Shown: positions 12,661 through 64,000, counted from the stretch's first letter. The stretch is DNA of 64,000 bases from Nemertoderma westbladi (GCA_032718475.1 JAUCBJ010000648.1:1-64000); one strand, 5' to 3'. Notes: generated by a model from the sequence alone, not told the origin. Numbers and translations are program-made.

Positions 12661-12711
12661 AGAAAATGGGATTTAATTCTATAAAATATAAAAAATCACA
12701 GTTTCTAAAAT

Positions 12712-28011: not shown

Positions 28012-28638
28012 CTGATGCTGGTTCACCTTCTATTACAGGAGTTGGATCCTGACAACCGATCTTATTACAGGCCACCACCGAGAAATAATGACGTTCATTG
28101 GGTAATTCTGGGACGATTATGTATGAATCATTTGTAATTCCTGTTGTTTTAGAATCAATTTTTTGGTTACTATTGGTGTACTCAACTCTAAACCATTGAT
28201 TAGATCCACCATTGAATCCTGGTGTCCAACTAACTTTTACACTAGAAGAGTCAACAGCTTCTACTTTAACTCCAGTCGGCATATGTGGAGGTCCTATAGG
28301 TTCCAACCTAACGTCACATTCAACCTCAGTATTACTGCTAGGGATACCATTTCCAACCCTCCCAAAGTAGGTTAAATTAAGATCATCACTGGTTACATTA
28401 TATATAGTTAGCCTTAAAACAGCTGTACTTTTATACTCAGAGTTCTCCACTACAACTGATGTTCTGTATTTATCACCATCGGGCAGCTTTTCATTAACGT
28501 CATTTTGACTAACCCAATAGACACTCGATTCAATAACAGCTGGATAACTTTCCATTGTACATGTTAGGTTAACCTCCTTTCCAAAAACTCCTATAACAGT
28601 TCGCTCTGTTGTGTCATTGTGAATCCAATGTGGTTTGT
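28012..28638 (-). CDS. Receptor copy B exon 3: Ig domain plus fibronectin type III domain
   Basis: Acceptor ttctttag and donor G/GTATGT, phase 1; NLTC..SYPA..YW; GPPHMPTGV..VSWTPGFNGGSNQWF..Y..VVACNKIG (nephrin-type FN3 signature). Confidence 0.88.
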
Positions 28639-29164
28639 CTAAAGAAAAAAATGTGTTTGTATTGTAATTATATTTATTATGTGGGAAATGTGAATTCAAT
28701 GCAACCACTACACCAAGGTGGAACCTTGGAATCAGAGTCGGGAAGTTATCAATAGTCCAAACACGACTGAAAGATGAAATGGTAAATTATAACATTGCGA
28801 GCTTCGAGCTTGATATTTTATCTAGACACGTTGCAATCAAGCAGCAAAATCTTAAAGTAGCCAGATTCTGGAATAGTTACTGTGTTACTGGTCGTATTGA
28901 TGTAGATTATATCATTAATATGATTTATAAATAATGACCTGAAGTTCGTATTGTTTGTTTTGTTTGTATTGAATTCTTATACATGCCTGGTCTGGGTTGT
29001 GTAGTTCAGTTCACCGTCTCAAAGTTGCACAAAACATTAAGTTTTAACAAAACGAGACGGGGGTTGGGTAACTTACGCCAATCCCATCAATGAAAATTGA
29101 AAATTAAATAAAAAAATGAAAATTGTAAATATATTGTGTGGAAGCGTTGACATGGAATTATATA

Positions 29165-29489
29165 GGGTAATATTTACAGTAGTTTATTGTTACTTACACT
29201 GAACTATTAACTCAATAGTGAATGACTCCAGTTCTACTAACAGTGATGGAGGGTAATATTTACAGTAGTTTATTGTTACTTACACTGAACTATTAACTCA
29301 ATACTGAATGACTCCTGTTCTACTAACAGTGATGGAGGGTAATATTTACAGTAGTTTATTGTTACTTACACTGAACTATTAACTCAATAGTGAATGACTC
29401 CTGTTCTACTAACAGTGATGGAGGGTAATATTTACAGTAGTTTAATGTTACTTACACTGAACTATTAACTCAATATTGAATGACTCCGT
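29165..29489. repeat. 86-bp tandem repeat duplicating the exon 2 3' end and splice donor (three extra copies in the intron)
   Basis: gggtaatatttacagtag..cttacactgaactattaactcaata at 29165, 29251, 29337 and 29423. Confidence 0.9.
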
Positions 29490-30058
29490 AATAGTTGATG
29501 AATCATAAAACGTATATTCGGCTGTAGTTGTGTAAATCCCTGAAGATCTTTTATTTATATCGATATTCCTAACTTCATCTCCACCGGTTACGAAGTCGCC
29601 ACTCCAATTATAATCAACACCTATATTGCATCCATCTCCATCTGGAATCCACTTTACCTCTATTGGGTCGTTATGAACTTCTAAACTTCTATTTAATTGT
29701 ATTGAATCACCTCCATTATAAGAAGTACCAGAAACTTTCAGTTCCAGATCACAATATTCTACAGTTACCGGTACCGCTGGGCTTTCTTTTCTCCCTTCCC
29801 CACCGTTGCTGTAACTACCGGTAAACTCGCACTTATAATCACCTCCATCGTCTGCGCGTAAAGGGTCTAGTGTAAATGTTGATGAATATGGTTCAGTAAC
29901 TATAGCTGCATCACCAGTAACATCTTTAGTACCATCAACATACCAGGACCAAGATGGATTCACATTGTAATCGTCTGCCGAACATTTTAATTCCAATGTT
30001 TCGCCTTTTTTCTTTTTAATCGCATCGTTGGGGTTAATGTTTATCCAAGACGGCAAAT
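29456..30058 (-). CDS. Receptor copy B exon 2: two Ig-like domains
   Basis: Acceptor gttccag and donor T/GTAAGT, 603 bp, phase 1; LELKCSA..WSWY..DDGGDYKC; second domain YNW..SGIYT. Confidence 0.88.
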
Positions 30059-33000
30059 CTGGAACAATAAAATTAATATTAATAATAATAATATAACTTA
30101 GATGTAAAACTTTCAGATTCATAACAATGTAATGTTAATTGTTATATATTGTAATGGCGAGTTTTTTAAACGCCAATGTTGGCCAATGCTTGGAACTAGT
30201 TTAGTGGAAACAAATGCAATTTTAGCTGACAGATTGCCTCGATTGTCGACTACGGCCGTTTCCGTAATTGCATATCGGTTTACATTTTTAACAAGAACCT
30301 TGCAGTGGTTGGTGGTGATCCGTAATATTTAAAATCAGTGAAAATCATAATTGTTTTTTATTCACGTTTTGTAATATTAACCCTATTTGGCCCATTTTAA
30401 AATTTTTTTGTAGGTAGGTTTTTTGTAATTCATCTGTATCTTTGAGTCAGGTTTGTTGGCAAAATTGTAATTTATGAGCCAAGATCTAAAACATTTCTTT
30501 AATGACCCCCCCCCCCCCCCCCCCTGGGCTAATTACGTTGTTAAATAGACCGTGCCAGATAGAGTTAAACCAATTGAATAACGTTTCCAATGAAATTATA
30601 TGTCTGTATGTTTAGTACGTTTGTGGAGTTTAAATGATAATGGTATTAACGTGAATGTCACTAATTTCGATCACAAAACAGCTATTCTTGAATTTAATAA
30701 TACAGTATCATTATTATTGTGATCATACTGTATACGTACCAATGTAGTAGGCCCCTATAGTATGTACTTCACAAGATTGCCTTTGAATCAAAACCACGTG
30801 CATTTAGCAGGAAACTACCTGTTTATGTAGAACCAAGGCCATCATCGTTATATGCAGTGGAGGTGGGGTGTGCCTAGGTTAAAATCTGCATTAAATAAGT
30901 TACATAAAAACCCAGACTTCCTAGTCCAATTAAGGGGGGTGTGGGGGGGGGGGGGGGTACCCACAAATAGCCACTTATTTTTAAATGGCCATTACTTTGG
31001 GTTATAACTTAATATAACAATTTTATCGTCGCTAGCATGAAATATGTGAATTTTTATGTATGTAAATTTTTGGAATAAAAATTCAATTATATTTTATATT
31101 AAAGTTTTGGCCTCCCCCTAGCAGCTGGCGGAAAAATGAGAATTTAACTAAATACACTAACTAGTCCCTCAATCTTGGTCCAAATTTCTTGAAATCAACT
31201 TTTTTGGAATCAGCACGATCAACTCTACAAAATGTATCTATAAATAGTATAGAATGTATAGAATTTTTAATTAGCTAATTTAAAAAATATTATTAATTTA
31301 ATTAATTGCTATTAAAGTTTGAACATTACCGCGCAAAATCTCTCTGTTAATATGTAAGAATGTCTGTCATTTATATCTAGCAACAAAAAAGCACAAAACC
31401 ATACTAAGATTTTTGCCATGGGGGTTTTCCTGGCTGTCTGTCTGTCGGTCTATCTGACAATCCGACAATCTGTTAGTCAAATATAAGGAAAGGTCATAAA
31501 ATCTAGCTTAAATTTAGTTATAAGGGTTTTCCTCGCTGAATTCATTTCGAGTGTCAGTTTTAACATGTCAAATGTCTGTTTGGCTGTCAAGCTGTCGGTT
31601 ATGTTTTGACGTTCAGACTGACAGGCATACAGACAGAAACGACGATGCCAAATTTAAATAATGACATCACAAATTACGTCATCGACTCCGAAAACCCAAA
31701 ACCGGCATTTTTTAGACAGATATGCTTTTTATTGACGGACAGAAATACTGACGGACAGACCGTCAGTCAAACGGACAGACAGCCATAGCTCAATAAGTAT
31801 GATAGATATTGCTAAACGGTTTTTAAATTTGGAATCTAGATAAAAAACTGCTCCAGATTAAATAATAAAAACAATTAAAAAAAAATTTGTAAGGGTGGGG
31901 GTAAGTATCATATTTGCCACCCAAAGTAGTAAACCATATAGGCAACCTGATAATTCACATATACATGAAATAGCAATTTTAAAGCAAAAAGAGGCAACTT
32001 TTGACGCAATTTGAAAAATAACCCAACAAATCTCGTGATAGACGGCAAAACAAGCAGTGAGCTTTCCAGTTGAGAAGGTTGTCGATGATGAGGCCAAGGT
32101 ATCTTACATTATCACAATGGTCAAGCATGGAGTCTTTGATTATAACTTTGGGTAAAGGTGGAATATTGCGAGGATTGTTAGAATAGATACAGTAAACTAA
32201 CGAGAGGCGATTCGAATCAAACCATTCAGAAAGATCTTCTAGTTCAATGTTAACAATATTTACAAGGTGAGTTTATGAGTGGTGTAAGCTAAACAAGTTA
32301 GTTTCGTCGGTGAAGTGTAGAGTTTTCAGATATGTTGCAAGAGGGAGGTCGTTAATGTACGGGATGAAAAGTGTCAAGGGTGGGACCTTGGGTGATATGT
32401 TATGCTTAATAGTCTAACTTTAAGAAAATAGGCCTATAAGTAATACTGTAGATACCAAATAATTATATATGGTGGTACTGTAGTCTTTGGTGTTTCAATC
32501 TATGGTTTTTGGTATACAGATATATAAAGTTGTTAAAGTTAGAATTAATTCCGAAATTGTAAATCAGTTTACATTTTTAGCATCACATTGCTGTGGTATT
32601 TGATATCCAATATTTGTTTACATATTGGTAGTATTGGTAGTGATGAGTATTTCAACTTTGTTTGGTTTATAATGATAATGTTATAAACCACATTAAAGTA
32701 TTACCGTAAAATTTTGGTATATAATACAGTAGTACCCCTAGTAGGAAATCTACATTCTATTAGGATTTCAGATACATAATTTCTGTTGTTCAATTTGACA
32801 TTAGTGTAAATCATGATTTTGAGTATTGTAATATTAAACTACTGTAATTGAATACGTCTCCCAAGTAATCAAATTTCTGTCTGTATGTTTAGAATGTTTC
32901 TGTAGTTTAGCTGAAATTGGTATTAACTTGAATGTCAGCAAATTCGATAAAGAATCAGCTTTTCTTGAATTTAATAATAGGGATAGCTTTGATTAACGTG

Positions 33001-35236: not shown

Positions 35237-35990
35237 GTTCCTTTGTCTGCCGCTAGAGGGCGAATTGACAGAAACGTAGAAGTACTGTAGCTGTACTTAT
35301 AGAACTAACCATCAGATTCATCTGAAATTTGTTAGGAGTGACCTATGAGCATTGCTTAAGTAGAAATTATACACAAAGACAGATTGAAATAAACGTAGAA
35401 GTAGCTGTACTTATAGAACTAACCATCAGATTCATTTGAAATTTGTTAGGAGTGACCTACAGGGTATGAGCATTGCTGAATAAGAAATAATTCTAAATAA
35501 GTACAGACTTCTACAGTTCCTCTGTCTGCCGCTACGGGGCGAATTCGCAGAAACATAATAGTAGCTATAATAGAACCAATCAGATTCAACTGAAAGTTGG
35601 AGTAGTGACCTACGATAATTGCTTAAATAGAACTGGTAGAGACAAGCTAACGAAGTAGTATACCAAATTTCGAGTACTCGGATTACATCTTTCTCGGGTT
35701 AACCTAGGTTAACCGAGTCTCGTGCTGCGCGAAGGCCCCACGAACGTGTATCCAATGGAATCACTTGAAACGTTAACCATAATGGCCGTGGAGTCTCTCT
35801 ACATTTAATACCCTTTCTTTCCCCATTTTGGACTTCACTCTTTGTCATTTACCGGCTTGGCTTCCTCCCTCAGAATGCCTCCAGCCGTCTCAGAAACCCA
35901 AGTCTACAGTCTGATGCTAACTGTGACTGATCGTATGTAACTAAATATATTGTAACATAATGTAACCTTTAGTGGATATCTCAAACTTAC

Positions 35991-36840
35991 ATTCAACTAC
36001 GATCGTAGTGGTACAGGATTTATCATCTTCTATAGCTCTATTCCTCGCCTTACATATAAACTCTGACCCATTATCTCCACGACTTAGATCTTTATTTATC
36101 CTCAGTGTATCTCCTGGTTCAGTTACGACTCCACCAATAGGAACTCCGATACTATCGTTACTATACCAACTCCATCTAGAATCTCCTGATGTACTTCCAG
36201 CTACCGGTGCCGGTACCCAATCCGATAACTTACAGTTTAATGTAGCTGAACTGCCTTCTATATAAGTACAACTCGGTAAGCAGCTACACTTTGGTTTAGT
36301 ATCAGCTTTACATTGGGTAAGAGGTATTATAAGTGGGTAAGTAGTCTGATCGGATATGGCCGGGTTGATTTGGAGTTCCACTACTCTATTCTCTTTAATC
36401 CAATATTTTATATTTATCTCAAATTCCTCCGGTATAGATTCAATAACAGGAGGATTCAACCCAACAGTTATATATCCTTCAGCTCCGGCTGTGTTGCTAC
36501 TTATATATTCTGTTGTATTCCATCTAACGCAAGGGATTTTAGTTTTATTGATGTTACAAACATCTCCGTTGGAGTTCGCTACATTATTCACACGTATGCT
36601 GTTACTATTATCATCCGTAGCAGTAACAGATAATTCCATTACATCGGAAATAGTTTCCGTTATTAATTCGCTAACCTCTTCAATAACAAAATCAACTTTT
36701 ACTCTAATACTATTTCTTTCTTCTTTAAATAAACATTCTCTAGTAAATTTAGATCCATCTGGTTCAACTAGTTTATATCCATTATACTTGAACCCCAAAA
36801 TAACATCAGTTAGTATCAGTAATATCAGTAATGATTTCAT
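35991..36840 (-). CDS. Receptor copy B exon 1: signal peptide, N-terminal domain, Ig domain (the four exons total 3003 nt = 1000 aa)
   Basis: MKSLLILLILTDVILG signal; donor T/GTAAGT; all four exons splice in frame via GT-AG phase-1 introns. Confidence 0.88.
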
Positions 36841-37000
36841 TGTTATTGGGGCAAAGTTTGTTGTTGAATTATAACAACTTATGTTTAAAATTGTGTCGGC
36901 ATTACAAAATTTATAGATTGAGTGCCGTTTTTAATCAATACAAAATATAAAATTATATATAAAAGATATTTAAATTATAAACTCAAACTCTATAATCCAC

Positions 37001-45849: not shown

Positions 45850-47753
45850 TGAAGCGAAGAGACGTACCTGATATCCTGCAATATCCTACTGTAAAGTTTG
45901 TGAATCAAAACATAATCCGACCTTCTCACCAAAACAGTAAACTCTAAGTAAGCAAATCTATTGCAGTATCGGTCTCTTATAACCGGTGAGGCAGAAAACA
46001 GTCTACGAACGGACAAACTTCGATAAAACAAAATCCCGCGCAGCGAATCCTAAAATCGGGCTGACTCACTGACGGACTAAGGGCGCTCGTATACTTTGCC
46101 GCGGTGTGATTTATATGTGGGTGAGAGATAGAGGCGCTAGCTAGGTGTCTAACTAGCGGGCAAAGTGCAGTACGGACAAAAATTATTTTATATATTTTGA
46201 GGTGTAAATAATTCCTAACGCGTGTGTGTCTTGATTCTAACAGTCAAAATCAGTTTTAGATCCTTCATATATATAATTACTGGGTCCGGTGTACATTTTA
46301 CAAATATTCTAATTTTGTAGCTTGTAGGTCCAATACTCACGAATGACAAGGCTCCTTCCCCTTTTGTGTATTTCCAGGACTCAAATTCAGGCATAAGGTT
46401 AATACTACGCCCAGAATTCGGCAATTTAATTTACCAGGTCCCTAATACTAAGAAGAAATGTGTTAGTTTACTACAGTAGGCGTACAGTTACAAAATAGCT
46501 AGCCTGGCGTCCTATCTAGAATTTTGGTTGCCTAGGTGGGCACGGCAACTTCCTATCAGAATGTCGGCGGGGACACGGTAGATGTTAGTATCCCTAATAG
46601 CCTCAATTTATATGCGCCCAGCAGTAAACTGCCCTACCGCCTGAACGGTACAATCCCAATTCAGGTAAAAACACAGTAACCCTTCCTGGCCTACAAGTTC
46701 TAATGCAAATGGACACCGTTGTACTACAAACGGCCACCGACGCACCTATACCTGGCAAATGAGTTAGGCGTACAGCTTGCTGCACCCTACTAATGTGTAT
46801 GCCTTGTACTGGTGTGCCTGCGTTCTATCTGTGTACTAGTATCTCTCTGCCTGATCTCTTCCTCCCCCCGTAGGAATATGAAGGTCTACTGTGGGTTTTT
46901 CTGAATTAAGACAGTACAGTCCCTAAATGTAATTTTTAGCGCACAGCGTGTCAGTACCTCTACCTTCGATCTTAGGTCTTACACTTAGGTAACGAGGCAT
47001 CGAATGCTGTCTAACCTTTCAGGCGATGGGCGAATAACTAAGAATGGGTATTGCGGGTTGTCTCCTTCTACATTCCTCCGATGTTCCCGTCTATTGCCGC
47101 GGTCCGATGTCTAGCCTGCCATCTGTCTCTCAGTTGTGTTCACCGTGGTGAAACATAGTAAAAGCAGATGTAACAAATACTTTCTAACTTTATTACAAAT
47201 AAACAATAACTAATATACAATAAATGTAACAAGACGTAGTAAGAAGTGAATGATAATTGAAGTTTAAGATAAGTTTAAGTTTAAGATTGAAGAGTGAAGA
47301 TTAAGATAACTAATGAACAAATCGCACCCTTTTATAGCAAATTAGTGCTGCTAACAATCTAGATAAATCTCGATTGTTCTATGAGTTCTACTAGGTTTTT
47401 AAAGATAATCATTGGTCCAGCAAACACGTATCTTGCACGACATTGGTTACTATCTAATGACTGCAATCGCATTGGTTAATCTACCTTAAGCAGATACAAT
47501 TAAATCGTAGCGGTTAATTCAAATGAGTTGAAACTTAGCACAAAAAATAATTCACACTTGCTAGGATTCGAACTCGATACCTACTACACGATTTTCTAAC
47601 GCATAACCGACTGAGCTACTGAACCACTTAAACAATGTTACACAAATAGATATAGTAAATGCAAATGAGGACTTAATGTAATCTTTATAGCAAATTAATT
47701 CGAACAAAATAAAATTTTGAAAATCCACGGCTTTATGGGGATATAATTCTATA
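45850..47753 (-). repeat. E3 3' LTR (inner boundary inferred from the PPT)
   Basis: Matches 62644-64000 up to 47206; PPT-like GGAGCGG (plus ccgctcc 47754-47760, as in E2) marks the likely start, where TG appears mutated to TA; CCAAT boxes, TATAAAA (47331-47337) and AATAAA (about 47189) on the minus strand. Confidence 0.75.
47542..47625 (-). ncRNA. tRNA-like Pol III cassette (A box, B box, T6 terminator) in the probable U3 of E3
   Basis: GGTTCAG-TAGCTCAGTCGG-..-GAGTTCGAATCC-..TTTTTT; no intact cloverleaf seen. Confidence 0.6.
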
Positions 47754-48339
47754 CCGCTCCATGAAAACAGGATATTATCGTGAATAAAATATACGGTTTT
47801 CACCAATACTAAATCAAATTATGGAATACTTGGGACGTACTTACATATTTACAAATTAAATCTCAACAATAATACCTTTACATAATAATTCGATACAAAT
47901 AATTACAAATTCAAACTTTACGTATTTAAGGCTTTATTAAGTAGGTACAATATAAATCTAAATTAAATTCACCAATATAAATCTATTGCATCTCAAATAT
48001 TGCATAAACTCAAACAATCACAAGTACAAATGCTACTTAAATATAAAACAAATTGCATAAGTTCGGAATAATTTCGAATGAAATCACAAGAAAGGCTCAC
48101 AAGTCTTCCATCTGCTCTTGCCTTTTATTTACTGCGAATACCAGTACTGCTTCTTTATAAAATATAAATTGCATAATATTCGAAACAATAAATTGCGTAA
48201 GTTTGGAATGACTACAAATATAACACTTTCTAAATATAAATCTTTCTAAATATAAATTCCTTCTAAATATAAATTCCTTCTAAATATAAATTCCTTTTAA
48301 ATTTCATAAAATTGGAACAATACAAAATACATAAATTTG

Positions 48340-48575
48340 GAACAATATAAATTGCATAAATTTGGAACAATATAAATTGCATAAATTTAGAACAATATAA
48401 ATTGCATAAATTTAGAACAATATAAATTGCATAAATTTAGAACAATATAAATTGCATAAATTTAGAACAATATAAATTGCATAAATTTAGAACAATATAA
48501 ATTGCATAAATTTAGAACAATATAAATTGCATAAATTTAGAACAATATAAACTGCATAAATTTAGAACAATATAA
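48340..48575. repeat. 25-bp minisatellite in the E3 3' UTR
   Basis: About 9 copies of aacaatataaattgcataaatttag. Confidence 0.9.
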
Positions 48576-48691
48576 ACTTTAAATTTAATCATAAGAAAGG
48601 CTCACGAGTCTTCCGTCCATTCCTTCCTTCCCACTTTACATAAGTTCTTACGAGTTTGGAATAATTAGTCCTTTCAAGTATAACACTTTAT

Positions 48692-51496
48692 TTATCGTTT
48701 TGTGGATTGAGCACGGCCGCGCCCTCGAAAACTGCGTACAGGCGACTTGGCTCGTACTACAGGGCTTATGGGGCGAGTCCCTGGTTTACCTTGGACGTTG
48801 GGAGACGGTGCGACCATTTCCTCACAAGCTCGCCTTCTAGTAATCCCAAATCCTCGTCCGACTCCTCGTGACCGACTAGTTGTATCCACTGTTGGCAAAA
48901 CGTCTGGGAACGCGCGGGAAGCGGACGACGCAGACCCAAGAGAAACTTGCGCCCCCCTTTGATCGACTGGTATGTGTCCTAATCCTACTTGCGGTTCTCT
49001 GGGAAGTGACACCGTATCCCGAGTAACGCGAATGGTCGGTTCATATCCCCTTCGTTCTTCAACATTTATAGTTCTCTTTAGTTGTTGGCTCACTTTCTGA
49101 ACCCTTATAATCCTATTCTGTCCGTCCTCCCGAGGGTGACGTGCAGACGGCGCAACCGGAGTAGCTGGTATGTTGGTCGCCTCTAGGATCTCCTCTTCCT
49201 CGAATACGCTCGCTCGTATACGTTTGTGATAGAATGCGGCTCGGTATGCCCATGCGAAGGTTAACCAAGCTCCCTTGTTCCGCTTTTCTGTTCGGAAACG
49301 ATCGAATTCACCATATGGGATACGATTGACGACTTTCTGGAAGTTCCATGTATTCTTATTATCGGGATGAATCTGTAGCAAATATTCGCGCACAACTCTG
49401 AATCCACTATCATGACGCAAAATATCGACTACCTCGATTAGTTCGTCATATTGTGGCATAGCGGAGATATATCCTTCCGACATCATAGTTTGAGGGTTTA
49501 CCGCCCAAAAATCCAAGATGTGCCCTCATTGGGAATCGTCTTCTTTGCGCCGATACATGTTCGTCAGCCAAATCTTCCCAATCATCAAACAGTTTTCGCA
49601 TTAATTTTACAGATTCGTGTTCGTATGGTATGTCTCGCAGTTGGCATTCAGATGCTCGATGTCCCTTTATATTGCAATATGTGCATTGAGCCATAAATCT
49701 CCAGCAAGTATAAAATGTATGGAACCCTTGATCTCCACACCATCCACAAATCAGTTGAGTCGTAGTAATGTGTTTTCCACTGCATTTCGTCGAATGATGT
49801 CCAGCGATGCCACATTTACCACACATCGTATTGGCAGGGTACCACACTCGCTCATATATGAGATCTCCAATGGGTCGAGCGCTTCCTCCCACACTATAGT
49901 CATAATCGTCTGGATCAATAGGTTGGTATGTTTCAGAAGGTTGTATGCAAACTACAGCATCTGTTGCTTCAAGTTGACGAATCTCCGTCTGAGATTTCTT
50001 CGGGAGGTTCCTTTCAATCTCAAGAAGTTCCTCTAGAGGATCATCGATGGTCGTCGTTACGTCGGAATCATCACCTAAGTGACCGATAGGCGCGCGCGTC
50101 TGCCGTGATTCGTCGATAACCTCCACGATACGTTCTCCTTCATAAGGTAACATTGTAAACATAGATGGTCTTTCGATAAGAGATCCCGCACAGCGAAGAT
50201 ACACGTCTCGAAATATACTAAATCCTGCCCGAGTAAAGGCGTTGCACTGAGCGTCGGAATTGTAGAAGGGTTCGAGAAATCGTCTAAACATGTCGGTGTG
50301 AATTCTCCCTTCCGCGTAGAACGTATGATCTTCTCCGAGGCAAAGTGGATGTCGTTTTAGAGTCCGAGACACAATGTCGGCGATCAAGCAAACATTCACC
50401 GATGACTCTATCGCTAAATAATATTGTAGTACTGCTCTTGGAGGTGAAGTAATAGCCCAATATACGCATCCTCTCCATTTAAGCTGTGATTCAAACTCAT
50501 TTATATCTGGAGTATCACCTTCTCCATACGTTTCGATATACTTTGTTCTTTTACTTTCCTTGTAATCCCAATTGAACAATAAGTAGGAAATGTATCCAGT
50601 TCCGGTCTTCTGAGTATCATACTCCCGGAAATATCCTTGTTCTATAGACCATAGTATAAGAGGTCGGGTGTCGACGTAAGGTGTCGGTAATCGGTCGTCA
50701 CTGTCCGACATGCCAGCAAAGTTGCTAAGTAAATCCTCTCTAACTCCTGATCCAATCTTTACAACGGTTTTATCTAAAATGATATTTCTGACCATCTTCG
50801 GTAACATCCTAGCGTCGATGTTGCAGGCTTGGTCCATCTTCTTTACTATATTAGTGATGAGATGGTGCCGCTTGGTATTTCCTGGAGGTATCGGCATTCG
50901 CTTGTCGCTCCTTTGTCTACTGAAACGTGCAAAACTCCGTCTGCCGCTCTAATTTGTATAGTCTTGGAAGTCAGACTCTGTTGATGGCTGCCGCCCTCGT
51001 TGTCATAAAACATGTAACCGTTTTCCTGAAACGATCTAAACGTTCTGTTCCATTCGTCCAATAATTCTTCCGAAGGTTGCCAAATCTTCTCTATGTCCTT
51101 CTCGTCCTCGAAGCGAATGATTTTACCTTGCCAGTTCGTAGCGATGTCTGTATCCGACTCAAAGGTTCCTGTTCCGATCCACAAACGAATTGTTCTGGTC
51201 AGATATCCTCTTAAGTTACTCGGAGCTATATCAGCGCCAGCTCTATCCAGTTCCCTAAAGTCTTGAATATGAGGCGGAACATTATGCAGGACCTTTTGCG
51301 TAATATGTCTACGTAAATCATATATCTTAACCATATTGCTTAGAACAACTGCAGGAAGAAACTCTAAGTTTGAAATGATTTCCGGATGATCCACAATAGG
51401 TATTTCATACGTCGTATCTTGTCGAACTGGTATACTAATAGGGAAATTGAGTGTCGTACTCAATGGTTTCGTAGTCGAAGTACTATGTGGTTGCAT
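48692..51496 (-). pseudogene. E3 accessory ORF: DEDDy-type 3'-5' exonuclease, three CCHC zinc knuckles and a basic/RG tail (two 1-bp frameshifts)
   Basis: ExoI MFYDNEG, TIQIR..LHVF, ExoII LPKMVRNIILDKTVVKIGSGVREDL, YVDT, ExoIII YLAIE; knuckles CGKCGIAGHHSTKC, CGWCGDQGFHTFYTC, CTYCNIKGHRASEC; indels in T-runs at about 50924 and 49509. Confidence 0.75.
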
Positions 51497-51555: not shown

Positions 51556-52413
51556 TTATACTTTCGAAACTTCCGGTGTCATCTCCTTAGCTGAAGTTTG
51601 GTCGTGTGACGTCCAATGGTAAGGTAGGCTCGCGAGTCTTCCGCCCCATTCTTCCATCTCACCTTCCTCGAAAGCCTTATAGGCTCTGTATAGGCTAAGA
51701 GCTTCTTTCTTTTCGCGGGTTGACTGAGTCACCTCTTCCAGCGAAAGTTCAAACGCATCGGGTTCAACAATCTTAGGTGGACAAACGACAATTTCTCCCG
51801 CCTTTGGTCCACACATAGCAAATGAATGATACGGATTCGATAAAGGATACCCTCCTTTGTGGTAGCGTAGTTGTTGATGGTTCGAACACCTCGCCAATAT
51901 CGGTTCGGGATTTTCCTTAATCAAACGCATCGGAATCGCCTTTTGTTGTTCGCGCATACAAGCACCACATTGATAATAAAGTTTGTAAACTGAAAAGGCT
52001 TCCTTCGTTTCTCTATCGTCTCCTCGAGTTCGTCTGTAAAGATGCATTCCATCGAATTCATCGCGTACCGCAGGCATAGGTTCATGTGCCTTCAGGTATT
52101 GCATGGTATGATACAAACGACTAATTTCGGTGTCGGGGTCTTCACTGATATCTCCCGTATCACATAAAGCATCGTACGGATAAAGTTCATTGAAGGTTTT
52201 ACGCAAACTTTCGATTCTTTGGTTTAGAGCGTTCTGCCTCCTCTTTAATACTGTCGAGTCGTATTTAGTTTTAGCAAGTTTTGCTGTACTTTCTGATAAA
52301 TCCTTTATTCCGAATATGGTGTATTCCTTTGCACCGAATCTTTCGAATGGAGCTGCTGCTTCCTCTTGAATATCGTATCCCCATCTCGGCTCTCCATGTA
52401 TCCCTTTCGCCAT
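51556..52413 (-). CDS. E3 accessory ORF of unknown function with a CxxC..CxxH motif; possibly the N-terminus of the exonuclease polyprotein
   Basis: ATG 52413 (MAKGIHG); RLYHTMQY..YYQCGAC..RCSNH aligns with E2 RLYSTMMY..YYCDEC..RCAKH. Confidence 0.7.
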   Translation of the reverse strand: MAKGIHGEPRWGYDIQEEAAAPFERFGAKEYTIFGIKDLSESTAKLAKTKYDSTVLKRRQNALNQRIESLRKTFNELYPYDALCDTGDISEDPDTEISRLYHTMQYLKAHEPMPAVRDEFDGMHLYRRTRGDDRETKEAFSVYKLYYQCGACMREQQKAIPMRLIKENPEPILARCSNHQQLRYHKGGYPLSNPYHSFAMCGPKAGEIVVCPPKIVEPDAFELSLEEVTQSTREKKEALSLYRAYKAFEEGEMEEWGGRLASLPYHWTSHDQTSAKEMTPEVSKV

Positions 52414-53046: not shown

Positions 53047-56000
53047 CTATTTACTAACATTAGTTGGAGACTTGTAATCTCCAGACTCGTTTCGAGTCTC
53101 TTCAAGAAGTACGAGACATTGGGTCGGTATGTCTACTGTACGACCGTCAATTGCCCGTACCGTCACAGTTCTTGTCACTCCATCCATAGATGGATGTGTG
53201 TCTAAAATAACACCTGTTATCCAGAAGTGTCTTTTTAAATTCACTTCTGCCAACAGCACGTGATCTCCCGCTCTTAAAGCGCGAGTATTGTTGTACCAAG
53301 TAGTTCTGGCAGAAATAGAGGGCAAATAATGATTTTGCCATATTTCCCAGAATTTGTTAGCCAGTAGTTGCGTGATTTTCCACGCTTTTCTACCATAGCT
53401 GTCGCCTTCTATTGGAATAGAAATAGGCATTAATGAAGTCGGTGCCTGCATTAGCAGGTGTGCAGGTGTTAAAGCAAACTGGGATTGTTTGTCATCGGGT
53501 ACTAATACTATTGGTCTAGTATTTAGTATTGCCTCGATTTCAACAAACAATGTTGTCAGTTGGTCGTCTGTCAAGATGTGGTTTACTGGAATTACTTTCG
53601 CCATGGCTGTTTTTATAGATCTAATCAATCTCTCCCAGACTCCGCCTCTCCATGGACTATCTGGAGGATTAAACTTCCAAACAATTTTGTAAGGACATAG
53701 TTCGTTTGAGATTTGATCATGATCTAATTTCTTAAAGGCTCTAGCAATTTCATTTCGAGCACCAACAAAGTTTGTACCTTGGTCTGAGTACAAGCATTTT
53801 ACTAGTCCGCGTCTAGCGATAAATCGCCGCAATGCTAGTATAAAAGCGTTGGTGGAAAGATCCATCACACGTTCAATATGAACTGCCCTACTGGACATGC
53901 ATGTGAAAATCAGTCCCCAGCGTTTTACTAGTATACGTCCACGTTTCGTATGTATGGGACCAAAGCAGTCAATTCCAGTCTCTGTGAAAGGTGGTCTGAA
54001 TGCTTGTAGTCGTGCTTGTGGAAGTTCACTCATTTCTTGGGTACTTATTCTAGAATGTACCTTTTTACAAATAATACACATGCGCGTCACCGAACTTAGC
54101 GCTTTACTGGGTCTAATTAATACAAATCTTGTACGTAAGTAGGAAAGACAGTGGTGTCTTCCAGCGTGTTTCAGATGTAAATGTGCGTCCAGTATCATTG
54201 CACGTTGTAATTCGTGATGTTGTGGTATTATTATTGGGTACCTAAAATCAGTATTAAAGTCTATGTTTTGAAGCCGAGATTTATGACAAATTAAGCCATT
54301 ATAAATTATCGGACTCCAACTCAATATTGGTGGCGACTTGATTGGTTGACCTTGACTTATGGATGTGAATTCGTGTGCGAAATATTCCAATTGGTAATGG
54401 CGAATTAATTTAATTTCACATCTGTCAATCTCAGTCAATGTGAGTCGACGTATAAAGTCGCGTTTGCCTTTAACGTATTGTACAAAACGTACAATCCACG
54501 CTAATTTTCGGCACTCATTTGTCCAAGAATCTGTCAGATGTACAATACGGTCGACGTAAGTATTTATGACGTCATCAGGTAAGTCAATGATGAATTTTGA
54601 AGGTTTTGTTTTACTAGATGGGCCCACGGGTCCGCCGGTAGGTATTCCCTTGTTGACTGTTGATCCGTCCGGGTCTACGAGTAATTTGTCCCTCTTCGTC
54701 TTCTTACCTTGATTGTCAGTATCTTGTGAGTCGATCCCAGGTCTCACCGTAGGTTGTATGGTTGGTATGTCTCTTGAGCGTAAAGTAACACCTGTATTTA
54801 CATTTGCGTAGGTACTACCCACATCTGTAATACATGAGGTTTCACTGTGCTTATGGTTACTCAAGAGTGTCAAATTTGGTATTTTGTCAATAGAAGGCCG
54901 CTCCATTAGGGAAACTGCGGCTTTACTATGTGTTAGTATGTTACTAGTGTCCGGTAGAACATCTTGTGAAATGTCTGGTAAAATGTTTCGCAGAACATCC
55001 GGCGAAACGTCTAGTGACAGTCTGACAAAACGTCTGGTTGACAGTCTGGTAATGTGTCTGGTTTATCGTCTGGCGATACATCTGGTTGACCGTCTGGTAA
55101 CGTGTCTGGTTGACCGTCTGGCGATACGTCTGGTGTAGAAAGGCTCGCAAGTCTTCCGGCCTTAACTTTGTAAGTTATATTTTTCCATTTCGCCTTTGGT
55201 TTTTTCTTGAGTTTCGCCGTTGTCTTTTTCTTTGCTTTCCCTTTCTTTGGCTTTTTAATTTCGGCGTCCTTAGGGATAGTGTTAGACTTGTTATCGTATA
55301 GTGGCGGCCAATGTTGTGTTGCTCTTTGTAAGAATTGTGGTCCGTGTTGCCAAAATTTCTTGTTCTCCGGTTTACAGAATTCCTCGGGCATCATTCCTCG
55401 CGACGCAATATCAGCTGGATTTTGTGGTCCGGGACAATGTCGCCAATCTTCTTTTATTGAACGGTCTAGTATTTCTGCACGACGATTAGCTACAAATGTC
55501 TTAAATTCAAGTGTGTCGTTGTTTATATAAAATAAAACTAACGTCGCGTCAGTCCAATAAAATATCTGTAAACTTGACTGTAGTTCCGTCTGTATAAGGT
55601 TTACAATGGTGGTTGACAGAGTTGCGGCTTGTAGCTCAGCGCGTGGTGTCGTCATGTACTTAGTAGGCATGGTCTTAGCCTTGGAAGTAATGAGCGAAAC
55701 ATCAAACTCATCTGAGTCTACTTGTCTGCGCAAATACGCATGTCACTCCAAAGCCGTTGTCACTGGCGTCGGAAAAACAATGTAATTCTAAGTTGTCAGG
55801 AAATGTCGTCTGTAATGGAAAGTACACCCGGGGTATGGAATAATCCTCTAGCGAAGATAATTGCGCCTCCCAAGTTTTCCATAAGACTACTTGTTCTGAT
55901 GAGATCGGTTCGTCCCATGTCAGTCCATCTTTCCAAATACTGCGCATGTATATTCTTGCTTGCAGTATTATTGGGCTGATAAAACCTAATGGATCGAACA

Positions 56001-59000
56001 GTCTACTTAGTTTTGACAAGCAAGACCTCTTTGTCAGAGAATCTCCTTGAGCGTCCAGTCTTACCTTCACTCGAAAGTTGTCTGTGTTCGGGTCCCAAAA
56101 TAGTCCCAACACCTTTGTCGTCGGTAGTGGTTCAAATTCCAAGTCAATGTCACCACCCCCACGTTCAGTCGTTTCGAATTAATTTACTAATTCGGTACTG
56201 TTCGAAGCAAACTTGGTGAGGTTAAAACCTCCGCCAGCTAAACAGTCCCGTAATTGATGTGCTACTGTAATGGCACGTTCTACTGTGTCGCAAATTTGTA
56301 ATCCATCATCAACGTAAAAGTCTCGTTCTATTACTTGGATTACCTCTGGGTCATACTTATGTTTCTGATCCCTAGCGGTCTGCTTTAGGGTGTACATAGT
56401 GCAATTTGGGCTGTCTCTGGTACCGAATACGCGAACTTGCATTTGGTAAGTCGCCGGTGGTTGACTTAAATCTCCATCCGGGTACCAGAGGAACCTCAAA
56501 CTGTCTCTGTCTCGCTCTAACGCTCGCACCTGGTGAAACATGGCTTCGACGTCGCAAGTAAATGCTACTTGGCGTTGACGGAAGCGCATAATCACCCCCA
56601 TGAGATAATTATTCATGTTTGGTCCATCCATCAACTCCGTATTGAGAGACATTCCCTCAAACAGAGCCGCGCAGTCATTTACTACACATACCTTGTCTGG
56701 TTTGTCGGGGTGTCTCACGTAGTGATGTGGCAAATAGTATGTCTGGTCTGTCACAATCTCTGGGTTTGTCATCCTGATAGCGTACCCTTTCGTCAAATAC
56801 GTCTCCATCTGAGTATTATACTGCAGATGGGCTTTCTCGTCCTTTAATAAACGTTGTCGTATTGAGTTTAAACGTCTTAAGGCTAGCGGATAATTGTTTA
56901 TAAGTTTAGGACGTTGGTTACGCCATAACATCCCTACCTCATAATGTCCGTCTTTAGTCTGATGGATAGTATCTTCCATGATCTTTAAGGATTGTTTTTC
57001 TTGTTCCGACATGCATGGTTCGTAACTACCAGGTTCGGCTGTGTCTTGTTCCAACCACTTGATAGTTTTCTCTGTTAATTCTTTGTCCAAAGCAGCTTGT
57101 TCCACTTGACAATTTCTTAATGTGTCGACATCGACAGGTGTTGATAAGGTTATTGGTTGAGGTAGACTCGCAAGCCTTCCGGCGTTATCATCTATCGTTG
57201 ATGGATCCTCTGCCTGATGTGTCTCCTTCTTAATCTCTAAACTTACCTCTTTGTACAGTGGTTTCTGCTCCCTTTGACTTGTTGTACTTGCCACACATGT
57301 CGTACTTGTCACTTTGTCGTGTTTTGTCGAGTTTCGGCGTGTAGTATAGTCAATGTCGTTCGAAAAAGAATGAGTCAAAGTTGTAGTTAATAAACTACAT
57401 GTACTTTGCACATCATCTTCCTCGTCACTTATATCTAGTGTGCGCACAGGCGCTCGAGTATACCACCCTATCGGCGTTCTGCAGGCGTATGCGTTTCCTG
57501 CTACGACTACCGATGGTCTGGTTTCCCACACTTGATGTAAGTTGAATTGGTCTGTCCCAATCAGCATTGCTACTGACCTATAATTAACAGGACATTCAGG
57601 TACACCAAGGTGCCTAAAATACTTACGGTCCTCTAAGGATTGTTCTGGCACTGGACCCAGTAGGTTACTAAAGTCCTTAGTGGCTGCAAAGGTTAAATCC
57701 TTAAAGGGTAACAAAGACCTCTCCTTTTCGCTATGTTGCGATTTCGGAAGAAGTGTGTCTAAGTTCAACTTAACTCGTGTCACTGGTATTGCACGTTGTC
57801 CATGCATACTACTTACAGTATATCTGACGTTCTTACCTTGTCGAAGATCCGTCACGACGTCAGCTACCTTCTCATCCACATAGCTGTGAGATGAGGCTGA
57901 ATCTAAAATAGCGTAGATCCGTTTGCTCCCTTTGGTGCCCGTAATCTTAACAGGAATTACGCTAAATCCCTTCAGCTGATCAGGCGTCAGAAGTGCAATC
58001 GATGGTTGTTCGTCTCCATCTAAGTATGTGTCATCGTCTTCTGATTCTTCATCTGAAGACCCGGATTGTTCTGGGAAACAATCCCAAATATGCGTCACAA
58101 AGGTTGGTGTTGTTTTTGGTTCTCGCGTCTTGTACGCAGTGTTGCACTTCGCTGCTGCTTCTGGGTGTTCCCTGGTGAAGCATTTTGTCGGTGTATGACT
58201 ATCGGTGTGGAGCAAACCGTCATGGTTGCGTCTACAGGAAGGACAGGTGTCCGTATTTGTGCAATCTTTACGGACATGTCCGTGTTGAGTACACCTCCAA
58301 CAAGAATCCAATGATCGTATCTGTAGTCTTCGTTCTTCTGAGTTCAACTCACGAAATAGTCGACATCCCCTTAACTTGTGACTAGTGTGTCGCTTACCTA
58401 TCCGCTCGCAGTATTGACAACCGCTGAAGTCGGCATTTAGTTGCTGCCTAGTCTGTTTGATTCCAATGGGTGCGGACACGTTATAACCATCAGAAAATTG
58501 TCGGGTTTCCGTCGGTGTAGCGTATGTGACCGTCCTCGTGGATGTCGTCTGTGGTTTTTGTCGGTTGGTCGATGGCAAAGTTATTCTTTCGGCTATAATG
58601 TGTTGATCCGTGTAGTTCGAACGAGTCTCCACTACTGCCTCCCTAGATATTAATAGGTACACATCTTCCAATCTTAAAAATCCACCTGTTTCTTCTCGCT
58701 GATACTCGATCTTTCTCCACTCCCTACGAAGTCGATGGTGTAATCTCCCTATTATTTTTAATAGGACTGTAGGAGTGTTTCCGTAATCAAGTTGTCCAAT
58801 CGACCGTAATGTCTTAATAGCGTTCTTGATTTCGTCAGCTAATTTAAGTAAGTCCACGGGTTTCGTAATGGCCCCTCCTTTACAGAGTTCCTCTATTACT
58901 GACTTGGCCATACTTACTGTACCTCCATAAATGGAAGTTAAGCGATCGTGTTCTAATTCGAAGGCGTCTGGTACACCGACGAAAGTCTCTGCTAGACGTT

Positions 59001-61791
59001 TTGGTTCTCCCGTCAGCATTTGAAGCAGGTAGTTAAACTTTTCCCTCGATGTAAAAGCGCATGCCGCAATTTGAGATTCGATGTAATCCACGAAGGTATG
59101 CTAATGTTTTGAGTTTCCGGAGAACTTTGGTGGTTGCTGCGCCGGTAATCCTTGTCTGGCTGCGAACTTAGCTATCTCTTCTGCAACATTCAAAGTTTCG
59201 CGTCCCTGGGTAACAATAGAGTTCGTTTTTCCCTGTCCAGGACGTCTTTTCTCATACTCTACATTCCCTGAAAGTACCATCCTTTGCGGATGCTTCGGGT
59301 GTCTAGTATGTTCGAATTCCGTGTTTCTCGAACTATCAGTTTGAACTTCCTCTAAGCGTTCCTTGATCTGGGCCAACTTGTTGACAACTGGTCGCATTAT
59401 GTCGGCTAATTGTTGCGTACTAATTGCGTCCGTTGGTTGTAACGCTTTCTGTGTTGGTGTATTTTGTGGAGGATTATCTATAAAGGAATTAGTTGAACGC
59501 TCGCGTTTGCATTCATCGGCCGCTCCTGTTCTAAACACCTCGCGTTCCGGGTAATCCGATTCGCTCAAAGTACTACTATCACCTGGATACGGTGGCCGAC
59601 GTGCTCGCGTCCGTTGGGTTGTCCGAATTCTAACATTCCGTTTCGAAACATCGTCTACTGGTCTCCGTTGTTCGGTAGGCTCACAAGTCTTCCTTGAAGT
59701 CGTAGATTGCGATGTAAACTGATTAAACGGTCGCGTGTCTACTGGTCTCCGTTGTTCGGTAGGCTCACAAGTCTTCCTCGAAGTCGTAGATTGCAATGTA
59801 AACTGATTAAACGGTCGCGTGTCTACTGGTCTCCGTTGTTCGGTAGGCTCACAAGTCTTCCTCGAAGTCGTAGATTGCGATGTAAACTGATTAAACGGTC
59901 GCGTGTCTACTGGTCTCCGTTGTTCGGTAGGCTCACAAGTCTTCCTCGAAGTCGTAGATTGCGATGTAAACTGATTAAACGGTCGCGTGTCTACTGGTCT
60001 CCGTTGTTCGGTAGGCTCACAAGTCTTCCTCGAAGTCGTAGATTGCGATGTAAACTGAATTTGTGGTCGTGTGTTGGCGTTTGAGTCTAACGGCCTTGAA
60101 GGCCTGAATACGATTGGGTTTGCGTAGTGTGTCACAGGTTTAGGTGTCGAAGGTTGACTCACCTGTTTAGTCGTCATTAATGTAGGTCCGACTAATAAAC
60201 TACTACGATCCGTTATTGGCGGATTACTTACCTTGACCTTTGGAATAGGCGATGACGTTGCTCTTGGCGGTACAAACTTGTCCGGAATAACATACCTGTG
60301 TTCCGTCGCATTGTGTATAGGAGATATACTGCTACTACCAGCAATCGAAACAGGTCCTTTATTCGTAATTGGTGCGAACATCGGAGTTACTTGAGGAAAT
60401 CGTTGACATAAGTCTTTAACCAATTCCTGTTCTCGCTCAGGTGCTCCTACGCTTCCTTCCTTCATTCGTTCCTGAATTTGACGATGTCTTACCTCTATCC
60501 GGTCTAGATCGTGTCCGTCTTGAAGATCCAGATCTTCTTTGGCATTGGCTAATTCCCTCGCCTTCTTTTCGAGTTCGAAATGAAGTTTAACTTCCTTCTC
60601 GCGTTGTTCCGTCTGTTGTTGTTGCGCCTCGAACTCTGCTAGTCGTATAGCTGATTGAGCCTTTATCTGCCGTTTTCTCAACTCGGCTCGGGCTTCCGAA
60701 ACTCGCTTTTGTTCTTCTAACTCTGCTGCTTGTCGTTCCAACTCAGCTGTTGCTGCTCGTTGCGCTAACTCAGCTGCCGCTGTTTGCTGTGCTATTTCTA
60801 GCTCTAGCCTTTCCATCTCAGCTGCTTCTAGTTCGGCTGCTTCTTGTAGATGAGAGATTCTCGCAACATTTGCGACGCGTAGTTTCTCTTCCTCTACAGC
60901 TGCTTGTACAGTTAATAATTGAGTTTGTTCCTCAATTTCTCGTTGTTGTCTGTAGTACTGTTGTTGCTGTCGAGAAATTTCTGACGTTACCATACTTACC
61001 TCGCCAATTTCGCTGCGAATACTCACCAATGATTGATCCAGTATTCCCGGTGCCAGTTCGATTTGTACGGGTGAAGTTTCCCTCGTATCTTCCGGCACGG
61101 TTTCCAAATCGCCGACGTCTTCGCCGCACATACGTAAGTGATCTGTCAGATGTTTCAATTGTCCATCCAGTCTGTACAGTTCCTGTTCTTCCTCGGGTTG
61201 TAATAATTCGTCAGAAACTGACTCACCTAACAACTGGTCCGCTTGTTCTTGTTGTATCAATCTAACGGCCGTCTTAAACTGAATTAATTTCTCCCTGGCG
61301 ATTATTAATTTCTCGAGGATTCTGAACTGAGTGTCCGCGTCCTGCCTTTGTCTAGCTAGATCTTGTAGACTGATCAGGTTATCTACGGACTTATGTACTT
61401 TACTTTTTACTCTAACCTGTAAGGTGTAGAACTCGAACCGGGACATCGGAGCGGTCAACTCGTTTAATATGCGTTGGCCTTCTCCAATACTCCTGGTGAT
61501 ATGCGCCATGTATCCTCCGACGCTTCTAACTACGCTCTCTTGGCTTCCTACTGAACTTACCATGTCCGTTTCCCTGTGTCTAGGTTGCGGGACCGTTAGA
61601 AAATCCTCAGTCCTGCCGTCGCCTCGTACTACGGCATCCGGTACTCCCGTTAGATGTACTGGTGACGCGCACGGTGTAGGTTCGGTAGGCTCGCGAGTCT
61701 TCCCCTGTGGTTCTTCCGCTACTGACTTATCCGCGTCACATGAGTCATAGTCGGTAGGTGTATTCTTCGTATAGTCCTGTTTGTCACTCAT
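53047..61791 (-). pseudogene. pol: E3 gag-pol polyprotein (BEL/Pao) with 2 nonsense codons (59101, 56179) and 2 frameshifts (about 55740, 55013)
   Basis: DUF1759-like gag and triple knuckle; protease ILDSAS; RT YYLPHH..DVEAMFHQV..FG..FYVDD; RNase H FSDAS, PRAEL, WTD, NPADIASRG; integrase HH-CC, IDCFGP, SDQGTNF, WERLI; DUF5641-like tail. Confidence 0.95.
59650..60070. repeat. 84-bp coding tandem repeat (5 copies) in E3 gag
   Basis: Encodes FTSQSTTSRKTCEPTEQRRPVDTRPFNQ. Confidence 0.95.
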
Positions 61792-62556
61792 TTCGGTAGT
61801 TGTAAGTCAAGTAAAGTGAGTGTCAAAGTATCAAACTTACCGTATTTATATCTAAACGGTATTAATTACAGTCATATAAAATTAGCCTACCGGCCGATTT
61901 TATAGCAAATAGATAAAATTAGCCTAGCGGCCAATTTTACAACAAATAAATGTCACGGAGTCGGTATATAATAAAATTAGCCTACCAGCCAATTTTATAA
62001 CAAATAAAATCGGATAACGATATACGTTATCAAAAGGTAAATCAAACACAAATAATACGGACTAATTCAGCAATAAACAAAGAAATCGTACGGAATGCAT
62101 AAATACTTGAGACAGTGGAACCCACAATAATTTTAACTAATACGGTAATGCCTAACTGATTTATGCAACTTTTCGAACTCACCCCCTCCAATAATTCTCC
62201 AGAAAAACAGATTCCCAGATACAAACCGGATGTGAACCTTTCCGTTTCCAGCGTTGCGGACGAAGTGCGATTTTCCCAACCAAAATTGTTGAGTTATCTA
62301 TCTCCCAAACTTGCGAAACACGGTCTTGCTCTCGTTACAGTCTAGAAATGAGCTCTGAATCCTGAAAAACAAAAGAGTTAGCACCGGTATTTTACCGGTT
62401 TTTTAAACACCGGTATTCAATTCCAAATATTTTACACGCGGTTCAAATCAAAATTTTATTTCAAAAATTAGCACTTAGCTAATCAAATACAAATTTTTAC
62501 CTCAAAATACAAATTTTCAAATAACTTAAGTCCTACTGAACCGTAGTTCAGTAAAA

Positions 62557-62643
62557 CATATTCCTACTGAATTAGGAAATATGTTAAATAATACCATATT
62601 CCTACTGAATTAGGAAATATGTTAAATAATACCATATTCCTAC
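62557..62643 (-). promoter_or_regulatory. E3 self-complementary PBS (GTAGGAATATG, 62633-62643), triplicated by a 38-bp tandem repeat
   Basis: catattcctactgaa at 62557, 62595 and 62633; exact reverse complement at 63664-63674 (and 46870-46880). Confidence 0.8.
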
Positions 62644-64000
62644 TGAAGCGAAGAGACGTACCTGATATCCTGCAATATCCTACTGTAAAGTTTGTGAATC
62701 AAAACATAATCCGACCTTCTCACCAAAACAGTAAACTCTAAGTAAGCAAATCTATTGCAGTATCGGTCTCTTATAACCGGTGAGGCAGAAAACAGTCTAC
62801 GAACAGACAAACTTCGATAAAACAAAATCCCGCGCAGCGAATCCTAAAATCGGGCTGACTCACTGACGGACTAAGGGCGCTCGTATACTTTGCCGCGGTG
62901 TGATTTATATGTGGGTGAGAGATAGAGGCGCTAGCTAGGTGTCTAACTAGCGGGCAAAGTGCAGTACGGACAAAAATTATTTTATATATTTTGAGGTGTA
63001 AATAATTCCTAACGCATGTGTGTTTTGATTCTAACAGTCAAAATCAGTTTTAGATCCTTCATATATATAATTACTGGGTCCGGTGTACATTTTACAAATA
63101 TTCTAATTTTATAGCTTGTAGGTCCAATACTCACGAATGACAAGGCTCCTTCCCCTTTTGTGTATTTCCAGGACTCAAATTCAGGCATAAGGTTAATACT
63201 ACGCCCAGAATTCGGCAATTTAATTTACCAGGTCCCTAATACTAAGAAGAAATGTGTTAGTTTACTACAGTAGGCGTACAGTTACAAAATAGCTAGCCTG
63301 GTGTCCTATCTAGAATTTTGGTTGCCTAGGTGGGCACGGCAACTTCCTATCAGAATGTCGGCGGGGACACGGTAGATGTTAGTATCCCTAATAGCCTCAA
63401 TTTATATGCGCCTAGCAGTAAACTGCCCTACCGCCTGAACGGTACAATCCCAATTCAGGTAAAAACACAGTAACCCTTCCTGGCCTACAAGTTCTAATGC
63501 AAATGGACACCGTTGTACTACAAACGGCCACCGACGCACCTATACCTGGCAAATGAGTTAGGCGTACAGCTTGCTGCACCCTACTAATGTGTATGCCTTG
63601 TACTGGTGTGCCTGCGTTCTATCTGTGTACTAGTATCTCTCTGCCTGATCTCTTCCTCCCCCCGTAGGAATATGAAGGTCTACTGTGGGTTTTTCTGAAT
63701 TAAGACAGTACAGTCCCTAAATGTAATTTTTAGCGCACAGCGTGTCAGTACCTCTACCTTCGATCTTAGGTCTTACACTTAGGTAACGAGGCATCGAACG
63801 CTGTCTAACCTTTCAGGCGATGGGCGAATAACTAAGAATGGGTATTGCGGGTTGTCTCCTTCTACATTCCTCCGATGTTCCCGTCTATTGCCGCGGTCCG
63901 ATGTCTAGCCTGCCATCTGTCTCTCAGTTGTGTTCACCGTGGTGAAACATAGTAAAAGCAGATGTAACAAATACTTTCTAACTTTATTACAAATAAACAA
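62644..64000 (-). repeat. E3 5' LTR (truncated by the window edge)
   Basis: Direct repeat of 45850-47206. Confidence 0.95.

Follow-up and report, generated by a model that had tools for sequence, protein, structure and literature searches.

Exonuclease genes carried as cargo by retroelements are known from bdelloid rotifers, where the LTR retrotransposons Juno and Vesta as well as Terminons encode a DEDDy-type exonuclease in their ORF3 (Rodriguez et al. 2017, PMC5408684; also PMC6431247 and PMC6338049, all available in part). The accessible part of the first of these reports bears out what a first-pass annotation of the DNA analyzed here had stated, namely that DEDDy ORFs occur in gypsy-type and Penelope-type elements. 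It describes an Asp-to-Glu change in the rotifer proteins, resulting in the motif DEED, and reports neither a clear departure from neutrality nor a link to copy number; EXD1 and Maelstrom are treated there as inactive DEDD derivatives. A combination of a DEDD domain with zinc fingers has been described for the RNase D of Trypanosoma brucei (TbRND), in which, according to the available part of the study, four zinc fingers are needed for cleavage and the CCHC fingers bind single-stranded RNA and feed its 3' end to the DEDD site (PMC7797062). The corresponding structures (PDB 7C42/7C45) are entered as CCHC-type domain protein.

For BEL/Pao retrotransposons, the ICTV profile of the Belpaoviridae gives a length of 4.2-10 kb, LTRs of 0.2-1.2 kb, an 18-nt tRNA primer site and an env-like gene as the only third gene; an exonuclease is absent from this profile (PMC8742986). 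Self-priming is described for Tf1 and Tj1 of the Ty3/gypsy group, where the 5' end of the mRNA serves as primer and, in Tf1, the primer cut is made by RNase H (PMC4600332, available in part). In line with the first-pass annotation, which knew of no BEL/Pao case, the paper searches, with Repbase, GyDB and subscription journals lying outside their scope, returned no BEL/Pao exonuclease, and a term search for 'exonuclease' gave 0 occurrences in PMC3118150 and PMC12440569. Among the paper titles in the literature search, none concerned BEL/Pao self-priming. A Repbase annotation of such BEL/Pao cargo could exist.

The BEL/Pao-type host element and its primer site

The window, i.e., the whole analyzed stretch of 64,000 nt from Nemertoderma westbladi (GCA_032718475.1 JAUCBJ010000648.1:1-64000), bears on its minus strand an LTR retrotransposon of which more than 18 kb are visible. 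The 5' LTR (62644..64000) is truncated by the window edge and matches a part of the 3' LTR (45850..47206, with CA at the minus-strand end) with 7 mismatches in 1357 nt (99.5% identity). For the remaining 3' LTR, i.e., the U3 region (47207..48619), we infer a start with TG at 48619, the partner of which in the 5' LTR falls beyond the window. Between ORF-B, the gene under study, and the matched LTR, the sole purine tract followed by TG is located at 48632-48618 (polypurine-tract candidate at 48620..48632), and contigs from one DNA run show a loose end at 48619. Accepting this start, the LTR would measure about 2.77 kb and the whole element about 19.6 kb. The putative U3 contains tandem arrays, CCAAT boxes, a TATA box near 47335 and a pyrimidine-rich initiator-like start near 47300, besides two copies of a 17-nt motif and a tRNA-like segment. 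The latter, with A and B boxes recognized by eye at 47555-47625 (minus strand), was not called by ARAGORN and Rfam, and its bin shows raised summed depth, as for a SINE; throughout the element, ARAGORN found no tRNA genes and Rfam no families. The 17-nt motif, GGAAGACTYGYGAGCCT, is present in 11 copies between 48093 and 61703 on the minus strand, all on the coding strand and confined to the element, in coding as well as non-coding parts (7 sites if an 84-bp gag tandem is counted once). It was found 0 times in 100 shuffles, a comparison in which the pattern itself had been derived from the data. Its near-palindromic core might, as a guess, be a packaging or protein-binding signal.

Pfam matches in the gag-pol region (53047..61791, minus strand) comprise DUF1759 (E 1e-6), Peptidase_A17 (E 7e-27 and 1e-9), Integrase_H2C2 (E 3e-4) and DUF5641 (E 7e-19), whereas RVT_1 is weak (E 0.13) with the YVDD motif being present. 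Together with knuckles, protease and a Pao-type RNase H region, Gag and the Pol order PR-RT-RH-IN are those of Belpaoviridae, and the flanking TG...CA repeats plus polypurine tract, with the LTR start as deduced above, agree as well. Because of the DUF1759, Peptidase_A17, Integrase_H2C2 and DUF5641 matches and YVDD, the element is BEL/Pao-type by its proteins, as the first-pass annotation had proposed. It is nevertheless atypical compared with the ICTV profile: Gag-Pol domains and their order, LTRs, purine tract and the position of a third gene are shared, but the element exceeds 18 kb, lacks a tRNA-type primer site and carries two non-env ORFs. The copy in the window is dead, its gag-pol being interrupted by two stops in frame and by two frameshifts. 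Sixteen metagenome loci match the integrase core at 38-55% identity, and in 2 of them pol runs directly into a terminal repeat.

Directly after the 5' LTR, at the primer-binding position (62633..62643, minus strand), a TGG is missing. Instead, its 11 nt are flush and complementary to a segment of the element's own LTR (63664..63674 in the 5' LTR; 46880-46870 in the 3' LTR copy), a match found in 0 of 1000 shuffled LTRs. Transcription from the TATA/initiator-like site would place this candidate self-primer segment about 420 nt inside the transcript. The complementarity of the primer-binding position to the own LTR is shared with Tf1 and Tj1, as the available part of PMC4600332 describes them, whereas the segment seems not to be at the 5' end as in these elements. 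An AATAAA (47194) precedes the segment and an ATTAAA follows it. The primer-site sequence recurs in three tandem 39-nt leader units (62544-62643), which are able to self-fold and could form a competing structure.

Two further BEL-type elements are found in the window. One of them (11454-23074; LTRs 11454-12652 and 21878-23074) lacks RT and contains, at about 12700-14250, a degraded stretch of ORF sequence that is unrelated. Its primer site is flush and self-complementary over 12 nt, pairing with 22629-22618 (0 of 1000 shuffles); with both LTRs visible, no exonuclease was recognizable in this element, the HMM being insensitive. The other (1-4900, gag 612-3425) continues with its 3' part beyond the window; its junction is at 4191, and 4877-4866 provides a complement of 12 nt, chosen from three candidates, of which the other two are of low complexity. 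Flush self-complementary primer sites of differing letters thus occur in all three BEL families of the window. Outside these elements, exons of receptor-like host genes (6964-7884, 25643-30134 and 35941-36930) are partly duplicated with about 86% identity over 1 kb; from their ORF translations, we take them to be of Ig/FN3 type.

ORF-B as a conserved accessory gene

Between integrase and purine tract, two orphan ORFs are encoded. ORF-A (51556..52413, minus strand) is unbroken, comprises 285 aa with several Cys and His residues and gave no useful match in Pfam and NCBIfam. Just downstream, ORF-B (48692..51496, minus strand) extends over about 934 codons from Met at 51496 to the stop at 48692 in three frame pieces. 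As this stop is about 60 nt ahead of the purine tract, ORF-B occupies the env slot. The minus-strand stop-free frames form a chain of overlaps (51586-50846, 246 aa; 50948-49446, 500 aa; 49525-48692, 277 aa), the first and third piece being in one frame with two frameshifts in all, and their stop-free runs have chance probabilities of 1e-7 to 1e-13 given the composition. Each overlap contains one homopolymer run of at least four (50931-50934 and 49507-49511), which fits the earlier proposal of two single-T indels splitting one ORF.

From its N-terminus, ORF-B consists of an N-terminal region, the DEDDy-like domain, an acidic linker, three CCHC knuckles, a further domain and a basic tail. The knuckles (49644..49823, minus strand) are present where they had been predicted, at 49823-49782, 49748-49704 and 49685-49644, with the spacing CX2CX4HX4C in two and CX2CX5HX4C in one of them, and are matched by Pfam zf-CCHC at E 0.0029 and 18.1 bits, below the cut-off of 20.8. 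The R/S/G/P-rich tail ending in RGRG (48695..49050, minus strand) had been called RG-rich; the tail exists, but its enrichment is moderate, with 28% R+G in the richest 40-aa block and 6 RG dipeptides. Since hydropathy over 19 residues peaks at 1.39, ORF-B has no TM-like segment, and inspection by eye of the N-terminus revealed no hydrophobic stretch that could be a signal peptide, in agreement with the previous statement that this is not an env gene.

The family was traced in four DNA runs from three studies; contigs from three of these runs reach every one of the 30 bins, those from the remaining run 29, the ORF-A/ORF-B cargo bins included. For comparing frame conservation, gaps were counted in the longest 32 of more than 34,000 pieces, of which two share a sample and some overlap, with one mixed piece excluded from the tally. 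In these, ORF-B (7 pieces) shows 226 substitutions and 2 gaps, similar to gag-pol (12 pieces; 327 and 3) and ORF-A (5 pieces; 132 and 2), whereas 141 substitutions are accompanied by 41 gaps in non-coding parts (6 pieces). Among these longest 32 pieces, the gap ratio of ORF-B differs from that of non-coding DNA at P 7e-14. A single 1885-nt contig spanning both ORFs has 200 substitutions and 2 gaps. Related copies of about 88% identity thus keep the frame of ORF-B as pol does, a conservation that is evident from indels and not from dN/dS. This argues against the ORF being absent from the family or decaying neutrally, the outcome that the first-pass annotation had named as speaking against its proposal. 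ORF-B is a real, family-wide accessory gene. Among the 37 listed near-fixed coding differences, third codon positions are not overrepresented in pol, gag or cargo (2 of 10 in ORF-B); these differences look private to the dead copy and uninformative on selection.

A HMMER search of 1.84 billion representatives left ORF-B without a homologue at E<=0.001, and none of the 489 and 3110 candidates from a word-indexed search proved to be one. Likewise, PDB sequences gave nothing beyond MAD2 (E 0.3) and phages a single row at E 9, while three scans of viral contigs and 22 metagenome contig stretches were without any match. In the 16 distant BEL metagenome loci, no exonuclease was detected (best E 0.68), a weak null as the same HMM scores ORF-B itself at E 0.058 and most loci are too short. 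A long post-pol ORF in one metagenome contig (L157:3773-6706) was considered as cargo and rejected as being a second gag, the contig consisting of two BEL elements in tandem.

The DEDDy-like domain

On the minus strand at 50340..51133, a DEDDy-like exonuclease domain can be deduced, with an N-terminal strand block at 51133 and broken once near 50931-50934. The YDNEG motif assigned to ExoI (D 51004, E 50998), the LP..L..I..D block of ExoII, LPKMVRNIILDKTVVKIGSGVREDL (D 50735), and the YxxxE variant of ExoIII, YLAIE (Y 50420, E 50408), were all located where the first-pass annotation had placed them. For evaluating this assignment, profiles were built from bacterial EXD2-like, RNase D and Pol I domains, the first break of ORF-B being read through with X, and a model of eight ordered blocks with flexible spacers was scored against shuffled sequences. 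The N-terminal block had been added after being noticed in ORF-B, making this test partly post hoc. The model reached 49.5 bits on ORF-B versus 5.8±5.5 in shuffles (0 of 400 as high), compared with 2.9 bits for the reversed sequence and -7 to 21 bits for seven other ORFs of the window, and it set ExoI on YDNEG and ExoIII on YLAIE unaided. Much of the score comes from the ExoII block (23.7-26.6 bits), whereas the ExoI and ExoIII blocks are near zero (ExoI about -1 bit); omitting ExoII still resulted in 25.8 bits versus 11.4±4.5, with 1 of 400 shuffles as high. Tests of half domains are weak alone (51/400 and 26/400 on the N side, 15/400 and 178/400 on the C side). An EXD2-only profile gave 34.9 bits (0/400), a score such as full-length domains of Pol I and RNase D reach (28-67 bits), but misplaced ExoIII.

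Independently, K, D, Y and E of ORF-B align by MAFFT with conserved family columns of ExoII and ExoIII, the ExoII Asp of the K.G....D block falling into an invariant column. With HMMER and hhalign, the ExoII stretch alone was aligned at single-test E values of 6e-5 to 1e-3, and when the 1030 ORFs from all six frames of the window were searched with the two local HMMs, this piece came out on top each time (E 0.058 and 0.2). In the ESM Atlas, the best matches of the second ORF-B piece carry PF01612 at 0.88, which is a lead only, and the N-terminal piece leads to unrelated phage clusters. Pfam and NCBIfam assign no exonuclease family, including PF01612, to any of the separate ORF-B pieces.

Structure prediction for the domain gave a pLDDT of 31.5 from the unguided single sequence. 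Guided modeling of a half domain improved this to pLDDT 61 and pTM 0.57, yet the fold is circular, being driven by 12 bacterial DEDDy rows, and the model was therefore discounted as support. With the guided model, Foldseek gave no match at E<=0.001. VIA, likewise using this circular model, listed exonuclease domains at Z 3.9-4.5, with the EXO domain of Nibbler at Z 4.5 (rmsd 4.2, 121 aligned) and Exd1 among the tied rows. Going by titles, the first 24 of the 50 rows are presumably DnaQ-like-domain proteins.

Taken together, the exonuclease reading is likely, resting on motif order, and the ORF-B domain is very probably DEDDy/DnaQ-like, of a diverged WRN/Mut-7/EXD type. The ExoI D-x-E of DEDDy enzymes is present in YDNEG and the ExoII Asp in its K.G....D block, whereas ExoIII reads YxxxE instead of YxxxD. 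On account of this Glu, ORF-B is filed as DEDDy-like and not as a canonical member, although the four metal-ligand positions are all acidic (D-E-D-E) and the ExoIII Tyr is kept. The earlier proposal of a DEDDy cargo with knuckles in the env slot is thus partly supported, by motif order, knuckles and frame.

Compared with WRN, EXD2 and Mut-7 (Nibbler) of PF01612, the N-terminal strand block, D-x-E, LP..L..IL.D..I.K.G....D, the D strand after ExoII, a W and the Tyr helix of ExoIII are found in the same order, the differences being two insertions of about 30-40 aa, the ExoIII Glu and the sub-Pfam score. With the rotifer ORF3s, as far as the available parts of their descriptions extend, ORF-B shares being a non-env gene after pol, RNase D-like and free of TM segments, with one Asp-to-Glu change. 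The rotifer hosts, however, are gypsy-type and Penelope-type elements, the motif is DEED as opposed to D-E-D-E in a BEL/Pao element and a triple knuckle is not described in these parts; the likeness is one of description. The order of a DEDD exonuclease followed by a CCHC finger array is also that of TbRND, which, going by the accessible portion of its description, is a cellular mitochondrial enzyme with canonical D-E-D-D and four fingers nearer to the domain. Here, the likeness concerns layout, without direct sequence match.

Possible roles of ORF-B

As a tentative proposal, ORF-B may be a trimmer of single-stranded RNA 3' ends blunting host RNA defence. This is preferred because the four ligands are acidic, the knuckles suit single-stranded RNA and the self-complementary primer sites seem untied to ORF-B. 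By analogy to TbRND, knuckles and basic tail would bind RNA and the knuckles would feed its 3' end to the DEDD site for trimming. Given a DnaQ fold, D-E-D-E plus Tyr would, slightly on the favorable side of even, still bind two metals. The substrates would be met in a cytoplasmic RNP and could be small-RNA guides of the host or 3' tails that mark the element RNA for decay, this being the least certain step. Counter-silencing, one of the two roles suggested in the first-pass annotation, is not contradicted and is most plausibly the putative function.

The same features could also belong to an RNA-binding adaptor with little or no catalysis left, which would package, transport or shield the element RNA, perhaps by acting at the 17-nt motif; we regard this as rather unlikely. 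EXD1, Maelstrom and Egalitarian provide parallels for such an adaptor, the former two as the inactive DEDD derivatives introduced above, and Exd1 appears among the tied rows of the circular structural comparison. The Glu in place of the ExoIII Asp, the poorly scoring ExoI and ExoIII blocks, the three knuckles with basic tail and the 11 motif copies on one strand within the element only would also be in line with it. However, with acidic residues at each of the four positions and the Tyr in place, ORF-B departs from the usual decay pattern of pseudo-nucleases, and no observed link joins the motif and ORF-B. Decidedly unlikely is that the exonuclease likeness is due to chance or a remnant, ORF-B being a selected protein of other fold or passenger host sequence. 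The absence of a library match and of any homologue among the 1.84 billion representatives would fit, as would the failure of Foldseek at E<=0.001 even with the guided model and a best VIA Z of 4.5, but the correct order of eight blocks (0 of 400 shuffles) and the independent placement of K, D, Y and E in conserved columns by MAFFT argue against it, and frame conservation speaks against a neutral passenger.

The other role suggested previously, maturation of a primer, would require ORF-B to trim the 3' overhang of an LTR RNA back to the 11-bp duplex for producing a flush primer, which appears unlikely. The flush 11-nt site without TGG (0 of 1000 shuffles) is what this idea predicts, and, unlike in Tf1, the segment is situated about 420 nt past the TATA/initiator-like site (47335-47300), so that extra processing is needed as it is not at the predicted 5' end; the downstream ATTAAA would set a copy near the RNA 3' end. 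On the other hand, the segment comes after the AATAAA at 47194, and Tf1 relies on RNase H for this cut (PMC4600332, available part). The two other BEL families share the arrangement with other letters and 12 nt each, and the one visible with both LTRs (11454-23074) has no recognizable exonuclease, though, being without RT, it could borrow in trans. The predicted co-occurrence of exonuclease and self-priming is hence seen in the ORF-B element but not recognizably in this RT-less family. As self-complementary sites are not confined to the exonuclease family and a 3'-5' exonuclease makes no internal cut, primer trimming is weakened, even though the flush complement itself was found. It is accordingly quite unlikely that the element stands for a BEL/Pao lineage of exceptional size (about 19.6 kb) and independent of tRNA that would, as the first such retroelement, mature its primer with its own exonuclease-knuckle enzyme.

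Leaving primer maturation aside and returning to RNA trimming against host defence as the preferred role, the function of nuclease cargo in LTR retrotransposons is a question standing since the rotifer report. A BEL/Pao case would be an independent use of nuclease cargo in another superfamily, with pol-like frame conservation, and the layout of RNase D plus CCHC predicted for ORF-B is known from a guide-RNA trimmer. If active, ORF-B would either add to the few known counter-measures encoded by animal transposons against defences based on small RNAs or RNA tails, or take part in priming that needs no tRNA.
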